The position numbers were made by a program, and so were the translations under genes. The notes below the pieces were generated by a model. That model saw nothing but the letters and a program-made list of their open reading frames with translations. It made no database searches and was not told where the DNA came from. Shown in pieces: positions 3,380 to 46,182 of a stretch of 64,000 nt of DNA. The DNA lies in contig OX597829.1 of NCBI GenBank assembly GCA_951406725.2, positions 30,876,001-30,940,000 of the forward strand, in the 5' to 3' direction. The DNA is from Octopus vulgaris. Taxonomy: Eukaryota. The first letter of the stretch is position 1, and every line of letters begins with the position of its first letter.

Positions 3380-3570
3380 ACAGATGTAGTGCGGATGAGA
3401 GAAAACTGCACTGGTATGGACATGAGATACATATAGAGGAGAGTCAAAGAGTCCAAGAGAGAGACGTGGAATGAAGTAGTAAAAGGCTCATTTCAAAATG
3501 TGAGCCCCTCAGAAGAGATGACAAAGAACTGAGACAACTATAGGTTTGCTATGCTCAAGAAGACCAGTCT
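3380..3570 (+). mobile_element. RTE-type LINE 3' fragment, old
   Basis: ERKLHWYGH..PRETWNEVVK..EMTKN matches the C-terminus of the ORFs at 12651 and 43266. Confidence 0.65.
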
Positions 3571-4357
3571 GCTTTGATGAAAATGAGATCCTAAATGCAT
3601 TATGTTCATGTCTATTACATACACTGGTTTCTGCCCTGCATTTAACCAGTCTCTGTGAATTCTTCTTACCCTCTTATCTTCCTAACACTCATCTTTCCAC
3701 TTTTGTAACTGTGGTCCTATTCAGCTGCTGTAATCATATCAGAACACAATTTGTACATATTTCATTTCCCTTTTGATTCCTCTACACAGCTATTATACTG
3801 CTGCTCTCCACCCCTCCTGTACTTCCACTTATCACCTCTTCCCTCCTGAGCCCCTCCTATCTCTTTCACATCCCTCATACTTATACCACATTTCCATGCT
3901 TGTTCACTGTTTATTACTTTCACCTGTAACCCCTACCTTTAACTAACTGTCACTCCCCTCTCACACTCTCACAAACTTATTCATGCACCCTTCCTGATCC
4001 TCTGCCTGTATTTTTTTCATACTGATCCGCTTGTATCTCAAAAGTACACACTGATGCTGGTTTGTCACCACCATCCTTGTCTTCTTTCCATCTACTACCA
4101 CCCACTCTTTATGTAATGTTAGGGTTGCCATGTATCTCCTCTATAGCAAAACACTTGTTTTTATCCCTCCATCATACTTTTAGCCTCTCAGTACTTGACA
4201 TAAATCACCTACCCCTCTGCAGCTCCACTCAGTCAAAGAGTCTGTGACTTTGTCTCATGAGTTATTTGCTTACCTTACTGGTGCTACTGTCATGTTTGAC
4301 CCTGTTGCACTGTCCAACACATACCAGTATGGAAGGCAAATGTTAAATGACAGCGTT

Positions 4358-4620
4358 ATACTAATACATCTGTTTGTTGTCTACACCACCTGTCTTCATC
4401 TTTTGTTTTTTGTGAATTCTCCCCATATATATATATATATATATATATAACAGGAAGGTTTACGAAAATAAACAAAAGACGAAGGCAGGTGGAGTACAAA
4501 TAAACAATTGTATAAGTATGGCACTCAGGAATAGAAATAGAACAAGTCTTTTACGTTTCGAGACTACGCTCTTCGACAGAAAGATACACAGAAAAATAAA
4601 CAAGGAGAGAAAAAAATGCG
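4358..4620. mobile_element. Two related Penelope-type terminal (pLTR-like) fragments, tail-to-tail across (TA)n
   Basis: 4358-4425 (+) and 4449-4620 (-) are related in inverted orientation around (TA)n 4426-4448. The second carries a hammerhead-like motif. Family assignment is inferred from that motif. Confidence 0.6.
4547..4584 (-). ncRNA. Minimal type I hammerhead ribozyme-like motif with variant core
   Basis: Minus strand reads UCUUU-CUGUCGA-A-GAG(CGUAGU)CUC-GAAA-CG-UA-AAAGA, giving stem I UCUUU/AAAGA, stem II GAG/CUC, GAAA and a GUA cleavage triplet. Confidence 0.6.
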
Positions 4621-4947
4621 TGTCAGTGTAGTTTATGATCTACATTTAAAATTCATCTATTTACTCGATGTCCGGTTGGTTTGGTATATAAACCAAAAAA
4701 ACTTAGGATTTAAACTCTTTTAATCCTGACCCTATTGAAAGAAGTCTTGAAAAGAATTTTTCACACAAGTTATTCGAGATGAAGAAGGTGCAATAGAATT
4801 TCTCCGACTCTATGAACTCCTTGTTTAAATCACTCCCATAATTATAATTGCAAATTTATAACAAAATTTTGAATGTAGATCACAAGCTAGTCTAAGTTTA
4901 AGTTGCTGTAGATCACAACGGCATGTAAATCACATACTACACCGGCA
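4621..4947. mobile_element. Putative MITE with imperfect ~27-bp TIRs
   Basis: TGTCAGTGTAGTTTATGATCTACAT at the left end versus ATGTAAATCACATACTACACCGGCA at the right end. TGTAGATCACA recurs subterminally. Confidence 0.45.
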
Positions 4948-4977
<30 letters not shown>

Positions 4978-4980
<3 letters not shown>

Positions 4981-5367
4981 TTTTGTGCTTTTATTTGTTT
5001 CAGTCATTGACTGCTGCCATGCTGGAGCACCGCAGGACTTATTCTTTGTGAGCCTAGTACTTATCCTATTGGCTCCTTTTGCCGAACTGCTAAGTTACGG
5101 GATATAAACACACCAACAATGGGGGGACAAACACAGACACACAAACATATACACACACATGCATACATGCATATATGTATAAGCCACTACACATTCTTTA
5201 GTTTTTCTCCTTGTTTGTTTCTGTGTTCTTTTCTGTGGAAGAGTGTAGGCTCAAAATGTTAAAGAACTTTTCATTTCCCAAGCGTTAAACTAATACATCT
5301 GTTTGTTGTCTACACCACTTGTCTTCGTCTTTTGTTTTTTTTTGTGAATTCTCCCTATATATATATA

Positions 5368-5410
<43 letters not shown>

Positions 5411-5622
5411 CTGTGCGTGTGTATATAAAAGAAACCTATCATATATATATATATATATATGATGAGTTTCTTTCAGTTTCTGTCTACCAAATCTACTCAC
5501 AAGGCTTTGATCAGCCCGAGGCTATAGTAGAGACACTTGTCTAAGGTACCTCACAGTGGGACTGAACCCAGAACCATGTTGCTGGTAAGCAAGCTACTTA
5601 CTACACAGCTATGCCTGTGCCT
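4978..5622 (-). mobile_element. SINE family A, split by an insertion in its internal microsatellite
   Basis: Tail at 4978-5150 and head at 5460-5622 match 26568-26976 in reverse. A Penelope-type fragment lies at 5183-5356. Confidence 0.8.
5183..5356 (+). mobile_element. Penelope-type terminal fragment with decayed hammerhead motif (5225-5267)
   Basis: GUUCUUUU-CUGUGGA-A-GAGU(GUAG)GCUC-AAAA-UG-UU-AAAGAAC. The 3' end is nearly identical to 4358-4425 and ends GAATTCTCCC(TA)n. Confidence 0.6.
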
Positions 5623-5747
5623 ATTATATATGATGGCTGTCTACTCATGGCCGAGGAAAACCATTGCAGACCTTTAGGAACATTGTGTGCTCTAGGACTA
5701 ACTTATACACACACACAAAGCACAAACACATGCACACACACATAACT

Positions 5748-5778
<31 letters not shown>

Positions 5779-6065
5779 CAATAATAAATCTCTGAGTGAG
5801 ATGTATATATATATATACACATATACATATACATACATATACATATACATACATACACATGCATACACATTGGTTTTGAGTTACACAGCTGGCTGAGTGG
5901 TTGGTGTTTCACACAACCAGCAAAGAAATAAGTCAGAGGTAAAATATCTTGTTAGTAGTATAACAATTTCTGCCCATGCTGTATCGTCTACAGCCTAAAA
6001 TCCTTGTCTGAATAATGTAAATAGGTGACACAATATGCTATATAGTTCACTGTATCGTAGTCAAA

Positions 6066-6372
6066 GTGAAGGTACATGGCTTAATGGTTAGGGTATTCAG
6101 CTTACGGTTGTAAGATTATGAGTTTGATTCTTCACAGTGCATTGTGTCATTGTGCTGCACACTTTATTTCACATTTTGCCAGTTCACTCAGCTGGCAAAA
6201 ATGAGTAATACCTGCATTTCAAAGGGCCAGTCTTGTCACATTCTGTGTCATTCTGTGTCACATTCTGAATCTCTCTGAGAACTATGTTATGGCCACTTGC
6301 ATGTTACCTTCATGAGCAGGCTGTTCCATTGATAAGATCAACTGGAATGCTCGTTGTAACTAATGAGTTGCC
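6066..6372 (+). mobile_element. SINE family C (tRNA-like head, CCAGTTCACTCAGCTG domain), tail type 1
   Basis: Head and core are shared with 25603-25940, and the tail is shared with 39030-39210. Confidence 0.7.
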
Positions 6373-6699
6373 AATTTATTGTAGCCAAAACAAAGAGACA
6401 CTTATCCACGTAAATCATGTTCTTCTAGGAACGGTTTGGTGTTGCTACTTATGGGTTTTCAACGTGCCAGTCACTGGTTTACTGCATTTTCGATAATGAG
6501 AGAGATTAGGAGAGTGTCTGCAAAACTTGGGAATAAAAATATCACAAAGAACTTTGTTTGAAAGCTGAGGCTAAATTATTTCTTTACTTATATCCACATA
6601 TTTTGTTTTTATAATTCACCAAACTATGCACACACACAATCACAAACGTGTATGCAAAAGTTTATATGTGTATACCCAATAAACTATCAGTAACACACT

Positions 6700-12407: not shown

Positions 12408-13668
12408 CATCATCATCATCATCATCGTTTAACGTCTGCTTTCCGCGCTAGCACGGGTTGGACGGTTTGACCGGGTCTGGGAAGCCAGGGGCCGCTCCAG
12501 GCTCCAGTCTGAATCTGGCAGAGTTTCTACGGCTGGATGCCCTTCCTAATGCCAACCACTCCGTGAGTGGATTGGGTGCTTTTTACGTGCCACCTGCACA
12601 GGGGCCGGAGGGTCCGGCATCGTCACGATCGGTTCGAGCATTTTAACGTGTCAGCGGCACGGGGGCAACGAGGTCCGGGGTACTTTGGGGATCGGGGTAC
12701 TTTGGGGATCCAGGGTACTTTGGGGATCCGGGGTACTTAGAATGGGTAGGGGGTATGTGGAATTGCTGCAGAAAGCAGCCCGGGTCTTTGTAGTCACAGC
12801 ATATCTCCAGAGATCTCGGTCCTTCGTCATTGCCTCAGTGAGGCCCAATGCTCTGAGGTCATGCTTGACCACCTCATCCCATGTCTTCCTGGGTCTATCT
12901 CTCCCCCTGATACCTTCAACTGTTTGGGAGTGGCACTTCTTCACACATCTCTCTTCATCCATCCGCAGCACATGACCATACCATCGCAAGCGTCGCTCTT
13001 GCACACCACATCTGATGCTTCTTATATCCAGCATTTCTCTCAGGATACTTACACTCTGTTTTGCGTGCACACTGACACTACACATCCAGCGGATCATGCT
13101 AGCTTCATTTCTTTCAAGTCTACTTCTATCTAGAGCATCACCCTTACCCTTGTAGTAGTTGACTATGGTGCTGCTGCACCAGTCATTGGGTATGGCTCCA
13201 TTGTGAACTACCTGGTTTACAATGCGGGTGACTATGGCATGGCCCACATAGCCAGCTGTTTTAAGCATCTCAGCAGTGATTCCTGATAGGCCAGGGGCTT
13301 TGCCTGGTTTCATATCCTTAATTGCCTTATCTACAAGGGAGCTGTCTATTCGGGTAGCTGGTCCCTCTACTGGGTCAACATTTGGCAGGCTCTCCTCCTC
13401 CCATTCATTCTCCTCATTCAGCAGTCTTTCATAATGGCTTCTCCAAGCCTCTTTCTTTTCACTAGTAGTAAAAGCAAGTGCCCCATCATCCATGCGGACA
13501 CATTTCTCTCCTATAACATCGCTATTTTCTCTGACACACTGTCTGGCAATCCGAAATACTTCAGCTCTTTGATCCTCGCGACGCTGGACATTGGCAAACT
13601 TCTTCTTTTCTGCTACATCTTTGGCAATGTATACCTGCCGCCCAGCCTCCCTTTTGGCTATCTGGTAC
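12408..13668 (-). mobile_element. RTE-type LINE, 5'-truncated, with in-frame internal deletion of the RT core and (GAT)n tail
   Basis: ORF 12651-13670 has the pre-RT linker (KAPGLSGITAEMLK..DWCSSTIVNYYKGKGDALDR) fused directly to the post-RT region (RLERNEASMIRW..RLRWYGHV..RPRKTWDEVV). It sits in (TA)n. Confidence 0.9.
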
Positions 13669-13782
13669 ATATATATATTGTTAATTCAAGGAAATTATAT
13701 CTTCATTAGGGATTATATAATCCAAGATATTATAATATATATAATATAATATTCTTATATTATATATATGATATATATAATA

Positions 13783-29383: not shown

Positions 29384-30655
29384 GCAGGCTGAGTAAAAAG
29401 TAAGCAACATTTTGAAACATGAAATTCATCACAATATATTTCAACAATGCGGAAATTTTATTCATCAAAGTAAGTACCATTACAATCAACACATTTTTAC
29501 CAACGAATTACAAGTTTGTTTATTCCGGTAACATAAAAATCTGGAGTTCTGGAGCTGATGAACTCTTTTGAATGTACTTTCAGCATCAGTTTGATTTTTG
29601 AACTCCTTCTCTCGCAGGAAACCATCAAGGTGCTTGAAAAAGTGGTAATCAGTAGGAGAAAGGTATAGAAAATAAGCTGGGTGGGGAAGAACTTCATAGC
29701 CAAGTTCCCTCAACTTCTGGAGCATTATTAGTGAAATGCGTGGTCGAACATTGTAATGAAGAATGATTAGCCCTCTTCTGTTGACCAGTCTGGGATGGAG
29801 AAATAGCAGTTTTTCGTTCATTTTGGGCATTTCATGGCATTATGTTTCTGTAGAAATAGTTTTTCTGGGTTTTAAGAAGTTATAGCAGATGAGTCCAGCA
29901 GTACACCACCAAACAGTCACCATAACCTTCTTTTGAGAGCTCGAGTTTAGGGAAGGTTTGTGGTGCTTCATTTTGGCCCAACCACTGCAAAGAACGTATT
30001 TTCTTATTGTAAAGAATCCTCTTTCCATTGCAAGTTACAATACGGCTGAGAAATGGTTACAGAGGAGAAGTGACAAACACATTTCATATCTGTGCATTTT
30101 CTGATTTTCATTCAAATCATGTGGTACCCATTTGTCAAGCTTTTTTGATTTTCCAATCACATGCAAATGGTTGCAGGCAGTTTTCTGGTTAACTTGAAGT
30201 TCTTTTGCCAGTTCTTGAGTGGTTTTACATGGATCTTTCTCCATGATAGTCTTCAATTGATCCTCATCGATGACAGATGGGTGTCCACTACACTCACGAC
30301 CTTCAAGGCTCAGGTCTCCACTGTGAAATCATTTAAACCATTTTCGAGCTGACCACTCACTGGTCATTTCCTCCCCAAACATTTTGTTAATATCACAAGC
30401 AGTTTCAGCTGCTTTATGTCCTGTTTTGAAGTTGAATAGCAAAATTGCTTGAATATCACACACTGACAGTTCTGTTTCAGATGATTGTAAGAACAGTGAA
30501 AAAAATCAACATTAATTCATTGATGCATTTGGGCAAGTCTATGTCTATATTATCAGACAATTGCAAAAAAATGTTTAAGAGAAATTCAAAACTCTGCAAA
30601 AATCCGGTACAAATTCTTTATGGTTCAAAACGTTGCTTACATTTTACAGAACCTA

Positions 30656-34199: not shown

Positions 34200-34340
34200 T
34201 CAAAATAATAATAATTATTTCAATAGTAGTTTCAAATTTTGGCACAAGGCCAGCAAGTTTGGAGGTATGGGTAAATTGATAACATCAACTCCAGTGCTCA
34301 CCTGGTACTTTTATTTCCTGAAAGGATGAAAAACAAAGTT

Positions 34341-36150
34341 ACATCCCCATTAGAAGAGGAATATTCCAGGGAGACACGCTCTCTCCACTCCTTTTCTGCT
34401 TGGCACTGTCACCTCTATCTGATATGCTAAATAGAACTGGATGCGGATATAAATGTTACGGCAAAACGATCAGCCACCTTTTATATATGGATGACCTAAA
34501 ACTATACGCTGCAAATGACAAACAGCTGGAAACACTATTAAAGACAGTTCATGGATTTACCAAAGAAATAGATATGAAATTTGGATTAGAAAAATGCGCC
34601 AAAGTAACCATGAAAAGAGGAAAACTAGTTAAGAGTAACAACATCACACTAGATAAAACCAATGAAATAAAAGAATTAGACCAAAGCCAAACTTACAAAT
34701 ACTTAGGAATCCATGAACTAGATAAGACACAACACACACAAATGAAAGAGAAAATATAAAAAGAATATTATAGACGAGTTAGATCAATACTAAACACAGA
34801 GCTCAATGCTAAAAACAAGATAATAGGTATCAACACTTTAGCTGTCCCAGTTATAAGTTACAGCTACAATATCCTTAACTGGACACGAAATGAACTGACC
34901 AAAATAGATAGGAAAACAAGAAAAATAATGACAGGATCTAGGATGCATCACCCAAAATCTGACATAGAAAGACTATATATACAACGTATAGAAGGTGGTA
35001 GAGGCCTTATACAGCTGGAAAACTACTATAAAATAACCACCATAGGACTGCAAAAATATCTACTTCAGAAGGAAGGAAAACTGATCCAGATAGCGGCAAA
35101 ACACGAGCAAAACAAAAAACTGTTCTCAGTATTTAAGGAAGCTGACAAATACAAACAAGAAATCATACCACCTAATAAACATGAAGAAGAAGAAGAAGAA
35201 GATGAAGAAACAACAAAAGCTATAAAACAAATGAAATCCAAACTAAAAACAGAACAGCAATGAACCATGATAAAACGATGGCAAGAAAAGCCCCTTCATG
35301 GTAAATACTGCACTAAACTAAACGCAAAAGAAATAGACAAAGAAAAATCCCAGCAATGGTTGAGAAGCTCAGGACTCAAAGCAGAAACAGAGGGATTTTT
35401 AATTGTAACACAAGACCAAAGCCTCCCCACCAGAAATTACCAAAAACATGTAATGAAAAGAAATATTACAAGTAACTGCAGAATATGTGGAGATGGACAA
35501 GAAACAATAAATCATATTATCTCTAGCTGCCCAGTCCTGGCTAAGAAGGAATATATTCACAGACATGACAGAGTTGGAACCTACATACATTGGAAGCTAT
35601 GCCAACATTATGGAATAACAACAGAAAAAAGATGGTATAGGCACACACCAGAAAAGGTCACAGAAAACGAAAGCAACCATACTCTGGGATATGCCGATAC
35701 ACACAGATAGAGAAATTAAGGCCAACAGACCAGATATAGTTGTCAGAGATCATGAAGAAAAAAAATGCTTTTTAATTGATGTATCAATACCGGCAGATGA
35801 CAACGTGTCTCTAAAAGAAATGGAGAAACTCTCAAAATACAAAGACCTGGAAATAGAGGTAACTAGAATGTGGAATCTGAAAACAGAAACAATTCCTATC
35901 ATAGTAGGTGCATTAGGCATGATAAAAAAATATTCAGACAAATACATAACAAAAACACCAGGACTTACAAACACATATAACATACAGAAAATTGCACTAC
36001 TAGGCACTGCCCACATCCTACGCAGAACACTTTCCATACAATAACCATCAGAGCATCACAACAAATCACAGCACATACCCAAGGCACACAGAGCTGCGCT
36101 CGGTAGTGAAGTGAAAGCACGCTATAAAAATAAAAATAAAACTACTGAAT
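34341..36150 (+). mobile_element. Young 5'-truncated R4/Dong-like LINE (RT, CCHC knuckle, REL endonuclease)
   Basis: RGIFQGDTLSPLLF, HLLYMDDLKLY, CRICGDGQETINHIISSC, RHD, RPDIVV, IDVSIP, EKLSKYKDL. Only two stops (34757, 35261) and one frameshift (~35675). It ends in (AAT)n. Confidence 0.95.
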
Positions 36151-44489: not shown

Positions 44490-46182
44490 ATTGTGCATTG
44501 TGTGAAAGTACATTTATATGCATGTAGGCATTTTGAGAGACTTTCAGAAATTCTATTAATGATCTTCTCATTGGTTCACAGAATAGACAGGGATTCCCTG
44601 GAGCAGAGTTGGCATCTCCTGGAAATTATATTGTATGGTTCTGTGTGCCTTACTATGGACCAAGTGATGTTGTACTTAATTGTACCTTCCTTCAATCACC
44701 ATACAAAATCAACCAAAGATGTTAAATGTCTCTTATTGATTGTCTTAAAGCTGGAGACATGGTTTCAGTAATGATTCTTAAATGAATCAACTGTCTGCCC
44801 AATGTAAACATACAGCCCTTCTCTTGTGTGCCCGGTACATTTATAAAGAAGATTTGTACTCATACAGAAGTTCGCCAATGGGCATTTTGATTTTTCTCTA
44901 CATGAGCATTTATTATATTTATTTGAATATATGGCAGTTCCAACTTCATTTTCTGATGTTGTTACCATATTAGCTATATCATAAGCATTTCTACTATTAC
45001 AATTTGGCCATAATTGGTGCTTTACATTGTGGTTTACATCTCCTTTATTCGTATATAGATGCCTATGTTTGCTAGATCCAGTAGGTGAGTTATTGAATTG
45101 TTGTTGCATTTTACTATTGTTTATGCAGTGAATAAGCTGCTCTATATTACCTGAGTTAGTGTAGGATACCTTTACAGTATACCAATTAAAAATAGCATGA
45201 TATCAATTATATTTAGGAAAACATTTGTCCAAAGTGGCAAAAAATTTTCTAGCGGTCTTGGTTGAAATATGTGAATTGAAAATTGGACTGAACCGGAGGA
45301 CATCTTGATTCCTATCTTAGGCTTATTTGTCCAATTGTGTTGTACAGGATTGGAGCAACTTACAGTGTTACAAGCAGTTGGATTATTATATTGTGTGCAT
45401 CTATGAGTTTTTGTAGGTGGTTCATTGTTTTGACCAATTCTTCTTGGCCTATATTCTCTATCTGAATGAGTTCTCATACTGTGACGTTGTGATGGTGTAC
45501 AACGTGTATTAGTATTGGAGGAATTACCAGTGTTGTGTATGCCTGCTTCTTGTATATATTGAAACTTTTCACAGTACCCAGCCCTATCTAAAGCAGCATT
45601 ATAGAAAGTTGCATGGGATTCAAAAATTTTTTTATTAGTGGATAATCTAGAAATTCTTGTAGAAATATTTTTAACTAATCCCTGTATTATCGAGGGTGGA
45701 TTGGTGGATGCTACATTTATGTACTTGATATGATCATTTGGCTTGTGGAATGGTTCAAATAATCCAGTATCAAGACAAGTTAGCATCAAGAAAAATTACT
45801 CTATGATAATCCTTTCCCATTGTAATGTTCAGTCCTGAATTTAAAAAAAATCTGAAGATAATTTCCTATGCCTTTCTAATTGTACTTTCCTACTTCTCAC
45901 CAGAAACAAAAGGTGTCATCCCTATATAAACCTCCTGTTATTTTCAGAAAGGAAGACTGGATTAATGAGAGGATATTTATCCTGACTAGGTCTGTGACCT
46001 CTACAGAGTCAGATGAACCCATTGCTATATCAAAAGCATTCTCCCTATCTAATCTACTCCATAGTCTACCATCAAAATCAACGAACAGGGTTCATACAGC
46101 AAGTATTATATCTATTTCATATTGGGACAAATTGGAATTTCTCATGCTATAAATCAGGGCTTTATTAAGGACAATCGGGTTC
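44490..46182 (-). mobile_element. Penelope-like retroelement relic (RT + GIY-YIG endonuclease)
   Basis: FDIAMGSSDSVEVTDLV, GLYRDDTF, FHKPNDHIKYINVASTNPP, CSCREKSKCPL..LLYKC..VYIGQT and CQLC..E..KCLH. Stops and frameshifts are present. Confidence 0.9.

Follow-up and report, generated by a model that had tools for sequence, protein, structure and literature searches.

Hammerhead ribozymes keep about 11 near-invariant core bases, A6 among them, and leave position 7 free; to our knowledge, almost every known hammerhead has A at position 6. The closest described systems are the minimal type I hammerheads (min-HHRs) of the pLTRs of metazoan Penelope-like elements (PLEs). These have an extra unpaired base after A9, a G10.1-C11.1 pair, GAAA, a palindromic C-G at 15.2/16.2, no loop III, a NUH site, a stem I of 4-5 bp and a U-rich 5' flank (Cervera and de la Pena 2014, PMC4209133). 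According to the same source, they are mostly solo truncated copies, inactive as monomers and weak as dimers even with A6, and the core variant described for them is U3-A8. The (TA)n-targeting PLE clades Hydra, Neptune and Naiad have been described with a hammerhead within ~200 nt of the 3' end, and the Naiad clade has been reported as lacking canonical hammerheads (PMC8557442). In the case of an Anolis PLE, the hammerhead cuts only with protein present, catalytic mutants had no effect on insertion in vitro, and the cut site was not the end point of any RNA-seq read (PMC11167929). Non-LTR animal retrozymes are short non-coding, pLTR-related repeats that typically carry canonical active type I hammerheads and form tandem arrays (PMC7229834), and a derivation of animal retrozymes from pLTRs has been proposed (bioRxiv 10.64898/2026.07.22.740005). 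Finally, a natural pyrimidine at core position 6 occurs in the A6C hammerhead of phage Bcep176, which cleaves at <0.1/min (Perreault 2011, PMC3088659). What is stated here of PMC4209133, PMC8557442, PMC7229834, PMC3088659, PMC7151607, PMC11014351 and the bioRxiv manuscript refers to the portions of these sources that were covered.

We have analysed a repeat family in a window of AT-rich, microsatellite-rich animal DNA (the window being the whole stretch of 64 kb). The original prediction described two related hammerhead-like motifs in it, both carrying U6, and reading them out position by position confirmed that they are present as described. They lie in two of three copies of the repeat, and the features of the locus are the following:

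4450..4626, minus strand: copy A of the repeat family, likely a Penelope-like 3' tail (pLTR), with its 3' end abutting (TA)n
4547..4584, minus strand: minimal type I hammerhead-like motif of copy A, with U6 at 4576 and the predicted cut between 4552 and 4551
5183..5355, plus strand: copy B, from a diverged subfamily, with its 3' end abutting (TA)n at 5356
5225..5267, plus strand: decayed hammerhead-like motif of copy B, with U6 at 5236, G7, G12A, C15.2U and a GUU site
4352..4425, plus strand: copy C, 3' half only and without the hammerhead motif, 91% identical to copy B
4425..4449, no strand assigned: (TA)n run between copies C and A, the likely insertion target
4460..4496, minus strand: another conserved block, close to the 3' terminus of the repeat, identical between copies A and B at 31 of 37 positions, with a depth peak at 4466-4493

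Copies C and A stand tail-to-tail across the (TA)n run, and copies A and B share 73.5% identity over 155 nt. The predicted cut lies 103 nt from the (TA)n in copy A and 96 nt in copy B. Stem I of copy A consists of 5 bp (4584-4580 paired with 4551-4547) and is followed by the core bases C3 (4579), U4, G5, U6 (4576), C7 (4575), G8 and A9 (4573), an extra A (4572), a stem II of 3 bp running from 4571 to 4560, and the 3' core G12 (4559), A13, A14, A15.1 (4556), C15.2, G16.2, U16.1 (4553) and A17 (4552). In copy B, C3, U6 and G7 are at 5233, 5236 and 5237, respectively. The other defects of copy B had been ascribed to CpG transitions, which is correct for 10.4 (5244), G12A (5253) and C15.2U (5257) but does not account for G7 or for an extra U in stem I. 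Similarly, the cut expected 3' of GUA fits copy A but not copy B, whose site reads GUU. Stem II, described as GAG/CUC, was found, but in the family majority it is one pair longer, with 4 bp (GAGC/GCUC) around a GUAG loop. This is due to a private change of copy A at 4563 that weakens its stem II: 95-99% of the contig depth (see below) reads otherwise, and with the family G at this position stem II has four pairs. The block at 4460-4496 is found in all three copies and has deep contig coverage; it is possibly a candidate region for RT recognition or priming.

The motif resembles PLE min-HHRs in each of the structural features listed above and also in being present as many solo copies (PMC4209133). 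It has C3, U4 and G5, a free N7, G8 and A9, and the unpaired base with G10.1-C11.1; copy A and the family also have G12, A13, A14 and A15.1, the palindromic 15.2-16.2 and U16.1 with H17, and stem I is 5 bp long in copy A. The architecture (extra A, GAGC/GCUC, GAAA and ACGU) is thus that of the Penelope-type minimal hammerhead apart from A6, as had been proposed. At position 6 the repeat differs from PLE min-HHRs, which have A6 in 44 of the 44 rows examined of a 56-row alignment that was built with an A6 descriptor (PMC4209133). Since the A6 feature fails, the motif was not filed as a canonical hammerhead; what is new is the U6 core variant, within a known kind, the minimal type I hammerhead of PLEs. 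The (TA)n preference, the distance of 96-103 nt between the motif and the 3' end and the inverted neighbours are shared with Hydra, Neptune and Naiad PLEs; in contrast, 34 of 34 tabulated cores of those elements, also found with an A6 descriptor, are A6, and a short, looped stem III is present in Hydra motifs, unlike in the repeat (PMC8557442). Compared with the hammerhead of phage Bcep176, with which it shares a natural pyrimidine at position 6, the motif has U instead of C and is a minimal dimer-type fold known from sequence in a high-copy animal repeat, and not a single phage ribozyme (PMC3088659). A relaxed minimal-hammerhead descriptor accepting any base at position 6, a search suggested in the original prediction, gave one match in both strands of the window, copy A, against a chance level of 0.005 matches per window in 200 Markov simulations.

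Position 6 was then followed across the family in public sequencing contigs. The stretch was matched by 24 public runs, which belong to 11 studies and carry four organism labels (four runs with only 0.08 of the words), and one run for each organism label A-D was used (X1, X4, X5 and X9; 4 of the 24). Contigs with at least 80% likeness were aligned to 4452-4660, numbering 9184 (X1), 5249 (X4), 10130 (X5) and 3104 (X9), 27,667 in total; this set consists of relatives at least 80% like copy A, and a diverged A6 sister family would escape it. Differences were recorded from 3% in any run as single-site shares, not haplotypes, with changes near contig ends uncounted. At 4576, no alternative letter reached 3% in any of the four runs, so U6 is present in >97% of the contig depth in all of them. 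U at position 6 is therefore the fixed state of the family under all four organism labels, and the claim that U6 characterises the family instead of reflecting decay was borne out. C3, U4, G5, G8, A9, A13, A14, A15.1, C15.2, G16.2, U16.1 and A17 had no recorded difference in the four runs either. Position 7 had three states (C, with U at 28-46% and A at 8-12% of depth) and was the sole place with two recorded alternative letters. The CpG at G12/C11.1 varied symmetrically at 1.5-3.9%, an ordinary decay level, and G8A, which is the CpG mirror of the position 7 change, stayed below 3%; the variation at position 7 thus stems from differences between source elements, not from decay, while other core positions vary only at the level of CpG decay. 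The repeat family is very abundant: the summed motif depth was ~17,000 to 120,000 times the depth just past the repeat in three runs, a ratio that is not a copy number.

The explanation that we favour, at about even confidence, is that the motif would be a slow, dimer- or protein-assisted U6 ribozyme residing in (TA)n-targeting Penelope-like 3' tails and still under selection. In appearance, and probably in its mode of action, it resembles the PLE minimal type. Cleavage would be slow and would take place after GUH only when two copies of the motif pair via the ACGU palindrome, probably with assistance from the protein of the element; pairing of U4-G5-U6 with A15.1-C15.2-G16.2 would hold the monomer off until a partner or the protein opens it. 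Published changes at position 6 strongly lower activity. In favour of cutting, the natural A6C variant still cleaves, at 0.004-0.05/min in 1-3 mM Mg2+ and at ~0.3/min in Mn2+; against it, A6C in a gut hammerhead lowered the rate to 3.6e-6/min at 0.3 mM Mg2+ (Naghdi 2020, PMC7151607), and a full mutant scan found low activity for all single changes in the CUGA turn (PMC9901934). The catalytic bases are G8 and G12, not A6 (PMC11014351); in the core turn, A6 is stacked on G5 (PMC11300833).

Folding predictions gave stem I a probability of 0.87-0.88 and stem II one of ~1.0 in the majority form; in copy A stem II had a probability of 0.05, a predicted misfold. Because copy A is predicted to misfold and copy B carries G12A, both window copies are likely dead: they are probably inert relics, and they are poor assay substrates in comparison with the family majority form. 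Copy A folded no better than shuffles (z 1.07), folding z-scores being uninformative for such a motif, and the double-hammerhead form was not the minimum obtained by cofolding. The introduction of U6 is predicted to add a competing monomer helix, U4-G5-U6 with A15.1-C15.2-G16.2: the probability of the G5-C15.2 pair was 0.44 (C7), 0.98 (U7) and 0.63 (A7) with U6, versus 0.01-0.10 with A6. Such a helix would, according to these models, hide the dimer palindrome. The same pairing is also the starting point of a different explanation, namely that this hammerhead-derived motif no longer cuts and serves as a folded signal for the protein of the element, for example in binding, in positioning of the RT or in RNA pairing, with U6 locking an extended hairpin. 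That U7 extends this hairpin (to the 0.98 given above), that position-6 changes strongly lower activity (PMC3088659, PMC9901934, PMC7151607), and that Anolis PLE insertion in vitro is independent of catalysis, with no RNA-seq ends at the cut site (PMC11167929), all agree with a non-cutting signal. However, the C7 and A7 alleles do not extend the hairpin, and their rod fold is only 0.2 kcal/mol below the open-core fold. Moreover, the conserved set contains the catalytic G8 and G12 together with a free position 7, which is the pattern of a working core. We regard a motif that only signals, the main rival of the favoured explanation, as possible but doubtful.

Regarding its carrier, the repeat is likely the 3' tail (a pLTR piece) of a (TA)n-targeting Penelope-like retroelement. 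This assignment is based on an A6 look-alike adjoining a decayed Penelope-like frame in an unrelated metagenome contig (L004), together with the (TA)n and the traits of the 3' end. Against it, no ORF belonging to the family was found. A metagenome scan with a family-like pattern allowing any base at positions 6 and 7 yielded four loci (L001-L004), none of them U6. L001, L003 and L004 are AT-rich and A6, and only L004 passes the stem I filter; L002 (GC-rich, G6) was put aside as a chance match. The L004 motif has the extra A, the GAGC/GCUC stem, ACGU and A6, and it lies 110 nt behind a decayed frame, which we take to have RT-thumb plus GIY-YIG-like features and whose lead in the Atlas, at 0.89, was a cluster with 17% GIY-YIG carriers. 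L004 (1915-2980) and L001 (546-1400, minus) come from a plant metagenome assembly; they are decayed 3' ends of Penelope-like type, related to each other, and their minimal hammerhead cores have A6. Their nearest Atlas clusters suggest that the source is probably an arthropod. In the repeat itself, the 3' end in (TA)n, the hammerhead-like motif nearby and the inverted copies are Penelope-like traits. Naiad and Hydra were considered as source clades and rejected: the consensus 3' ends examined, including those of Octopus Naiad and Hydra elements, do not match and are not the U6 family, with the reservation that line breaks in the supplement can hide matches (PMC8557442). In the same supplement, the 3' ends of Naiad_Obim and Naiad_Ovul both contain CUGUUGA, then a short stem and GAAAC; this resembles half of a U6 core, although its spacing is imperfect.

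Other searches gave no carrier. The family-like pattern had 0 matches in viral contigs, and neither the U6 motif nor the 3' block had any match in GTDB genomes. A generic U6 pattern found 106 loci in viral contigs and an A6 control pattern at least 120, none of those found having both stems of at least 3 bp; both results are at chance level and uninformative. Protein searches with the open antisense frame at 4449-4628 returned no match. There was no hammerhead family among 66 Rfam matches obtained for 3500-6500 at E values of 10 or below. The A6 look-alikes were likewise missed by Rfam, in three of three control loci, so its silence on the repeat is not due to U6.

The window contains further mobile elements. 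At 44500-45800 (minus) there is a decayed Penelope-like fragment with an RT thumb, a CxC..CPLxxxC linker and a YIG endonuclease, presumably Neptune- or Hydra-like; it had Atlas matches at 0.92-0.95, including clusters with 18-27% GIY-YIG carriers, and no match in the protein searches made apart from the Atlas. No hammerhead was seen at its 3' end, and the fragment is unlinked to the U6 family. SINE-like repeat copies recurrent through the window (4979-5180 and 5460-5625) flank copy B, and the U6 repeat family keeps landing in microsatellites at the ends of SINE-like repeats. Decayed frames at 12651-13685 (minus), 34322-36044 (plus) and 29486-30328 (minus) are presumably those of non-LTR retrotransposons and a mariner-like element. 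An element of ~330 nt at the 5' end of copy A (4619-4950) has 26-nt inverted ends (4620-4645 / 4923-4948, 81%), a repeated 12-mer near its right end, low contig depth and a frame of 21 residues that, we assume, resembles the start of an IS1595/Merlin-type transposase; Pfam gave no match.

The extent of the repeat bears on whether the family could instead be a ~180-nt non-autonomous unit, retrozyme-like or SINE-like, mobilised by a PLE, an arrangement that would fit either state of the motif and that we consider rather unlikely. The family depth collapses more than 1000-fold after 4626, one X4 contig connects 4615 to 4470 by way of 37 letters, as expected of a tandem unit, no RT plus GIY-YIG ORF was found beside the three window copies, and the proposed origin of retrozymes from pLTRs provides a precedent. 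Nevertheless, copy A is fused at its 5' end to the unrelated 330-nt element, and the drop at 4626 coincides with this fusion, which means that it shows where shared sequence ends and not where the family truly starts. The repeat is like retrozymes in being a short non-coding, pLTR-related repeat with a type I hammerhead; but described retrozymes form head-to-tail arrays of canonical hammerheads, whereas the window copies are solo or inverted, as most PLE minimal hammerheads are solo truncated copies, their motif is minimal and U6, and the single tandem-like contig joint lies elsewhere (PMC7229834, PMC4209133).

Continued selection on the putative U6 ribozyme is suggested by the free position 7 within a fixed core, by the location of loose contig ends and by the comparison of copies A and B. 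Loose ends pile up at 4544 and at 4582-4583 in the four runs (among the 24 rows listed, with 357 more), and these piles reveal subfamilies whose similarity to copy A is confined to the motif. The motif is thus kept in subfamilies with diverged flanks, which hints at selection. Copies A and B are identical at 30 of 38 positions in the motif, the differences being three CpG changes, one private change, a 1-nt shift and positions 7 and 17, versus 29 of 51 in the spacer after it. These data also bear on the idea that the ribozyme was inactivated by U6 in an ancestral source element, the dead motif then hitchhiking through later amplification. Variation among source elements is limited to about 12 of the 175 positions covered; the fixed core of 13 nt is therefore not significant alone, and little selection is needed to explain it within one subfamily; moreover, Naiad PLEs spread without canonical hammerheads (PMC8557442). 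Hitchhiking is nonetheless improbable, since copies A and B share the core including U6 despite their 22 spacer differences, the loose ends fall at the motif borders, and the single three-state site is position 7. No compensatory changes in stem I or II were seen in the contigs of the four runs, as judged from single-site shares, and two variants break stem I pairs with no recorded change of the partner (4548, 4.8-6.9%; 4584, 2.6-6.8%). As for a chance resemblance or a private mutation in two copies, the motif is short and folds no better than shuffles, but the descriptor rate, the like architecture behind a PLE-like ORF and, decisively, U6 being fixed in the contigs of all four runs refute it, leaving it a negligible probability.

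Within the literature searched, we found no natural U6 hammerhead family, no activity data for A6U and no natural substitution of position 6 besides the A6C of one phage; the largest survey of PLE variants (Lunse et al. 2017) was outside this coverage. None of the titles among the literature matches listed pointed to a CUGUNGA-type core, and a search with the family motifs gave one unrelated match only. The prediction that CUGANGA searches are blind to the motif holds: Craig 2021 used a CUGANGA-type descriptor (PMC8557442), which would skip U6. If so, some PLE clades reported without hammerheads may carry hidden ones. A broader and distinctly more tentative proposal, which we consider unlikely as a whole, would be that the family represents a selected active U6-core class that numbers at least tens of thousands of copies and is common to several related animal species, and that U6 would be a built-in switch keeping the monomer off and allowing cutting only upon dimerisation, protein binding or Mn2+.

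With U6 fixed in a huge family and the rest of the core apparently selected, this repeat constitutes a natural experiment on whether PLE hammerheads must cut. If the motif is conserved yet non-cutting, its fold has a non-catalytic job in retrotransposition. If the U6 motif cuts, the hammerhead consensus widens, surveys based on CUGANGA have undercounted these ribozymes, and claims of clades without hammerheads need re-examination.
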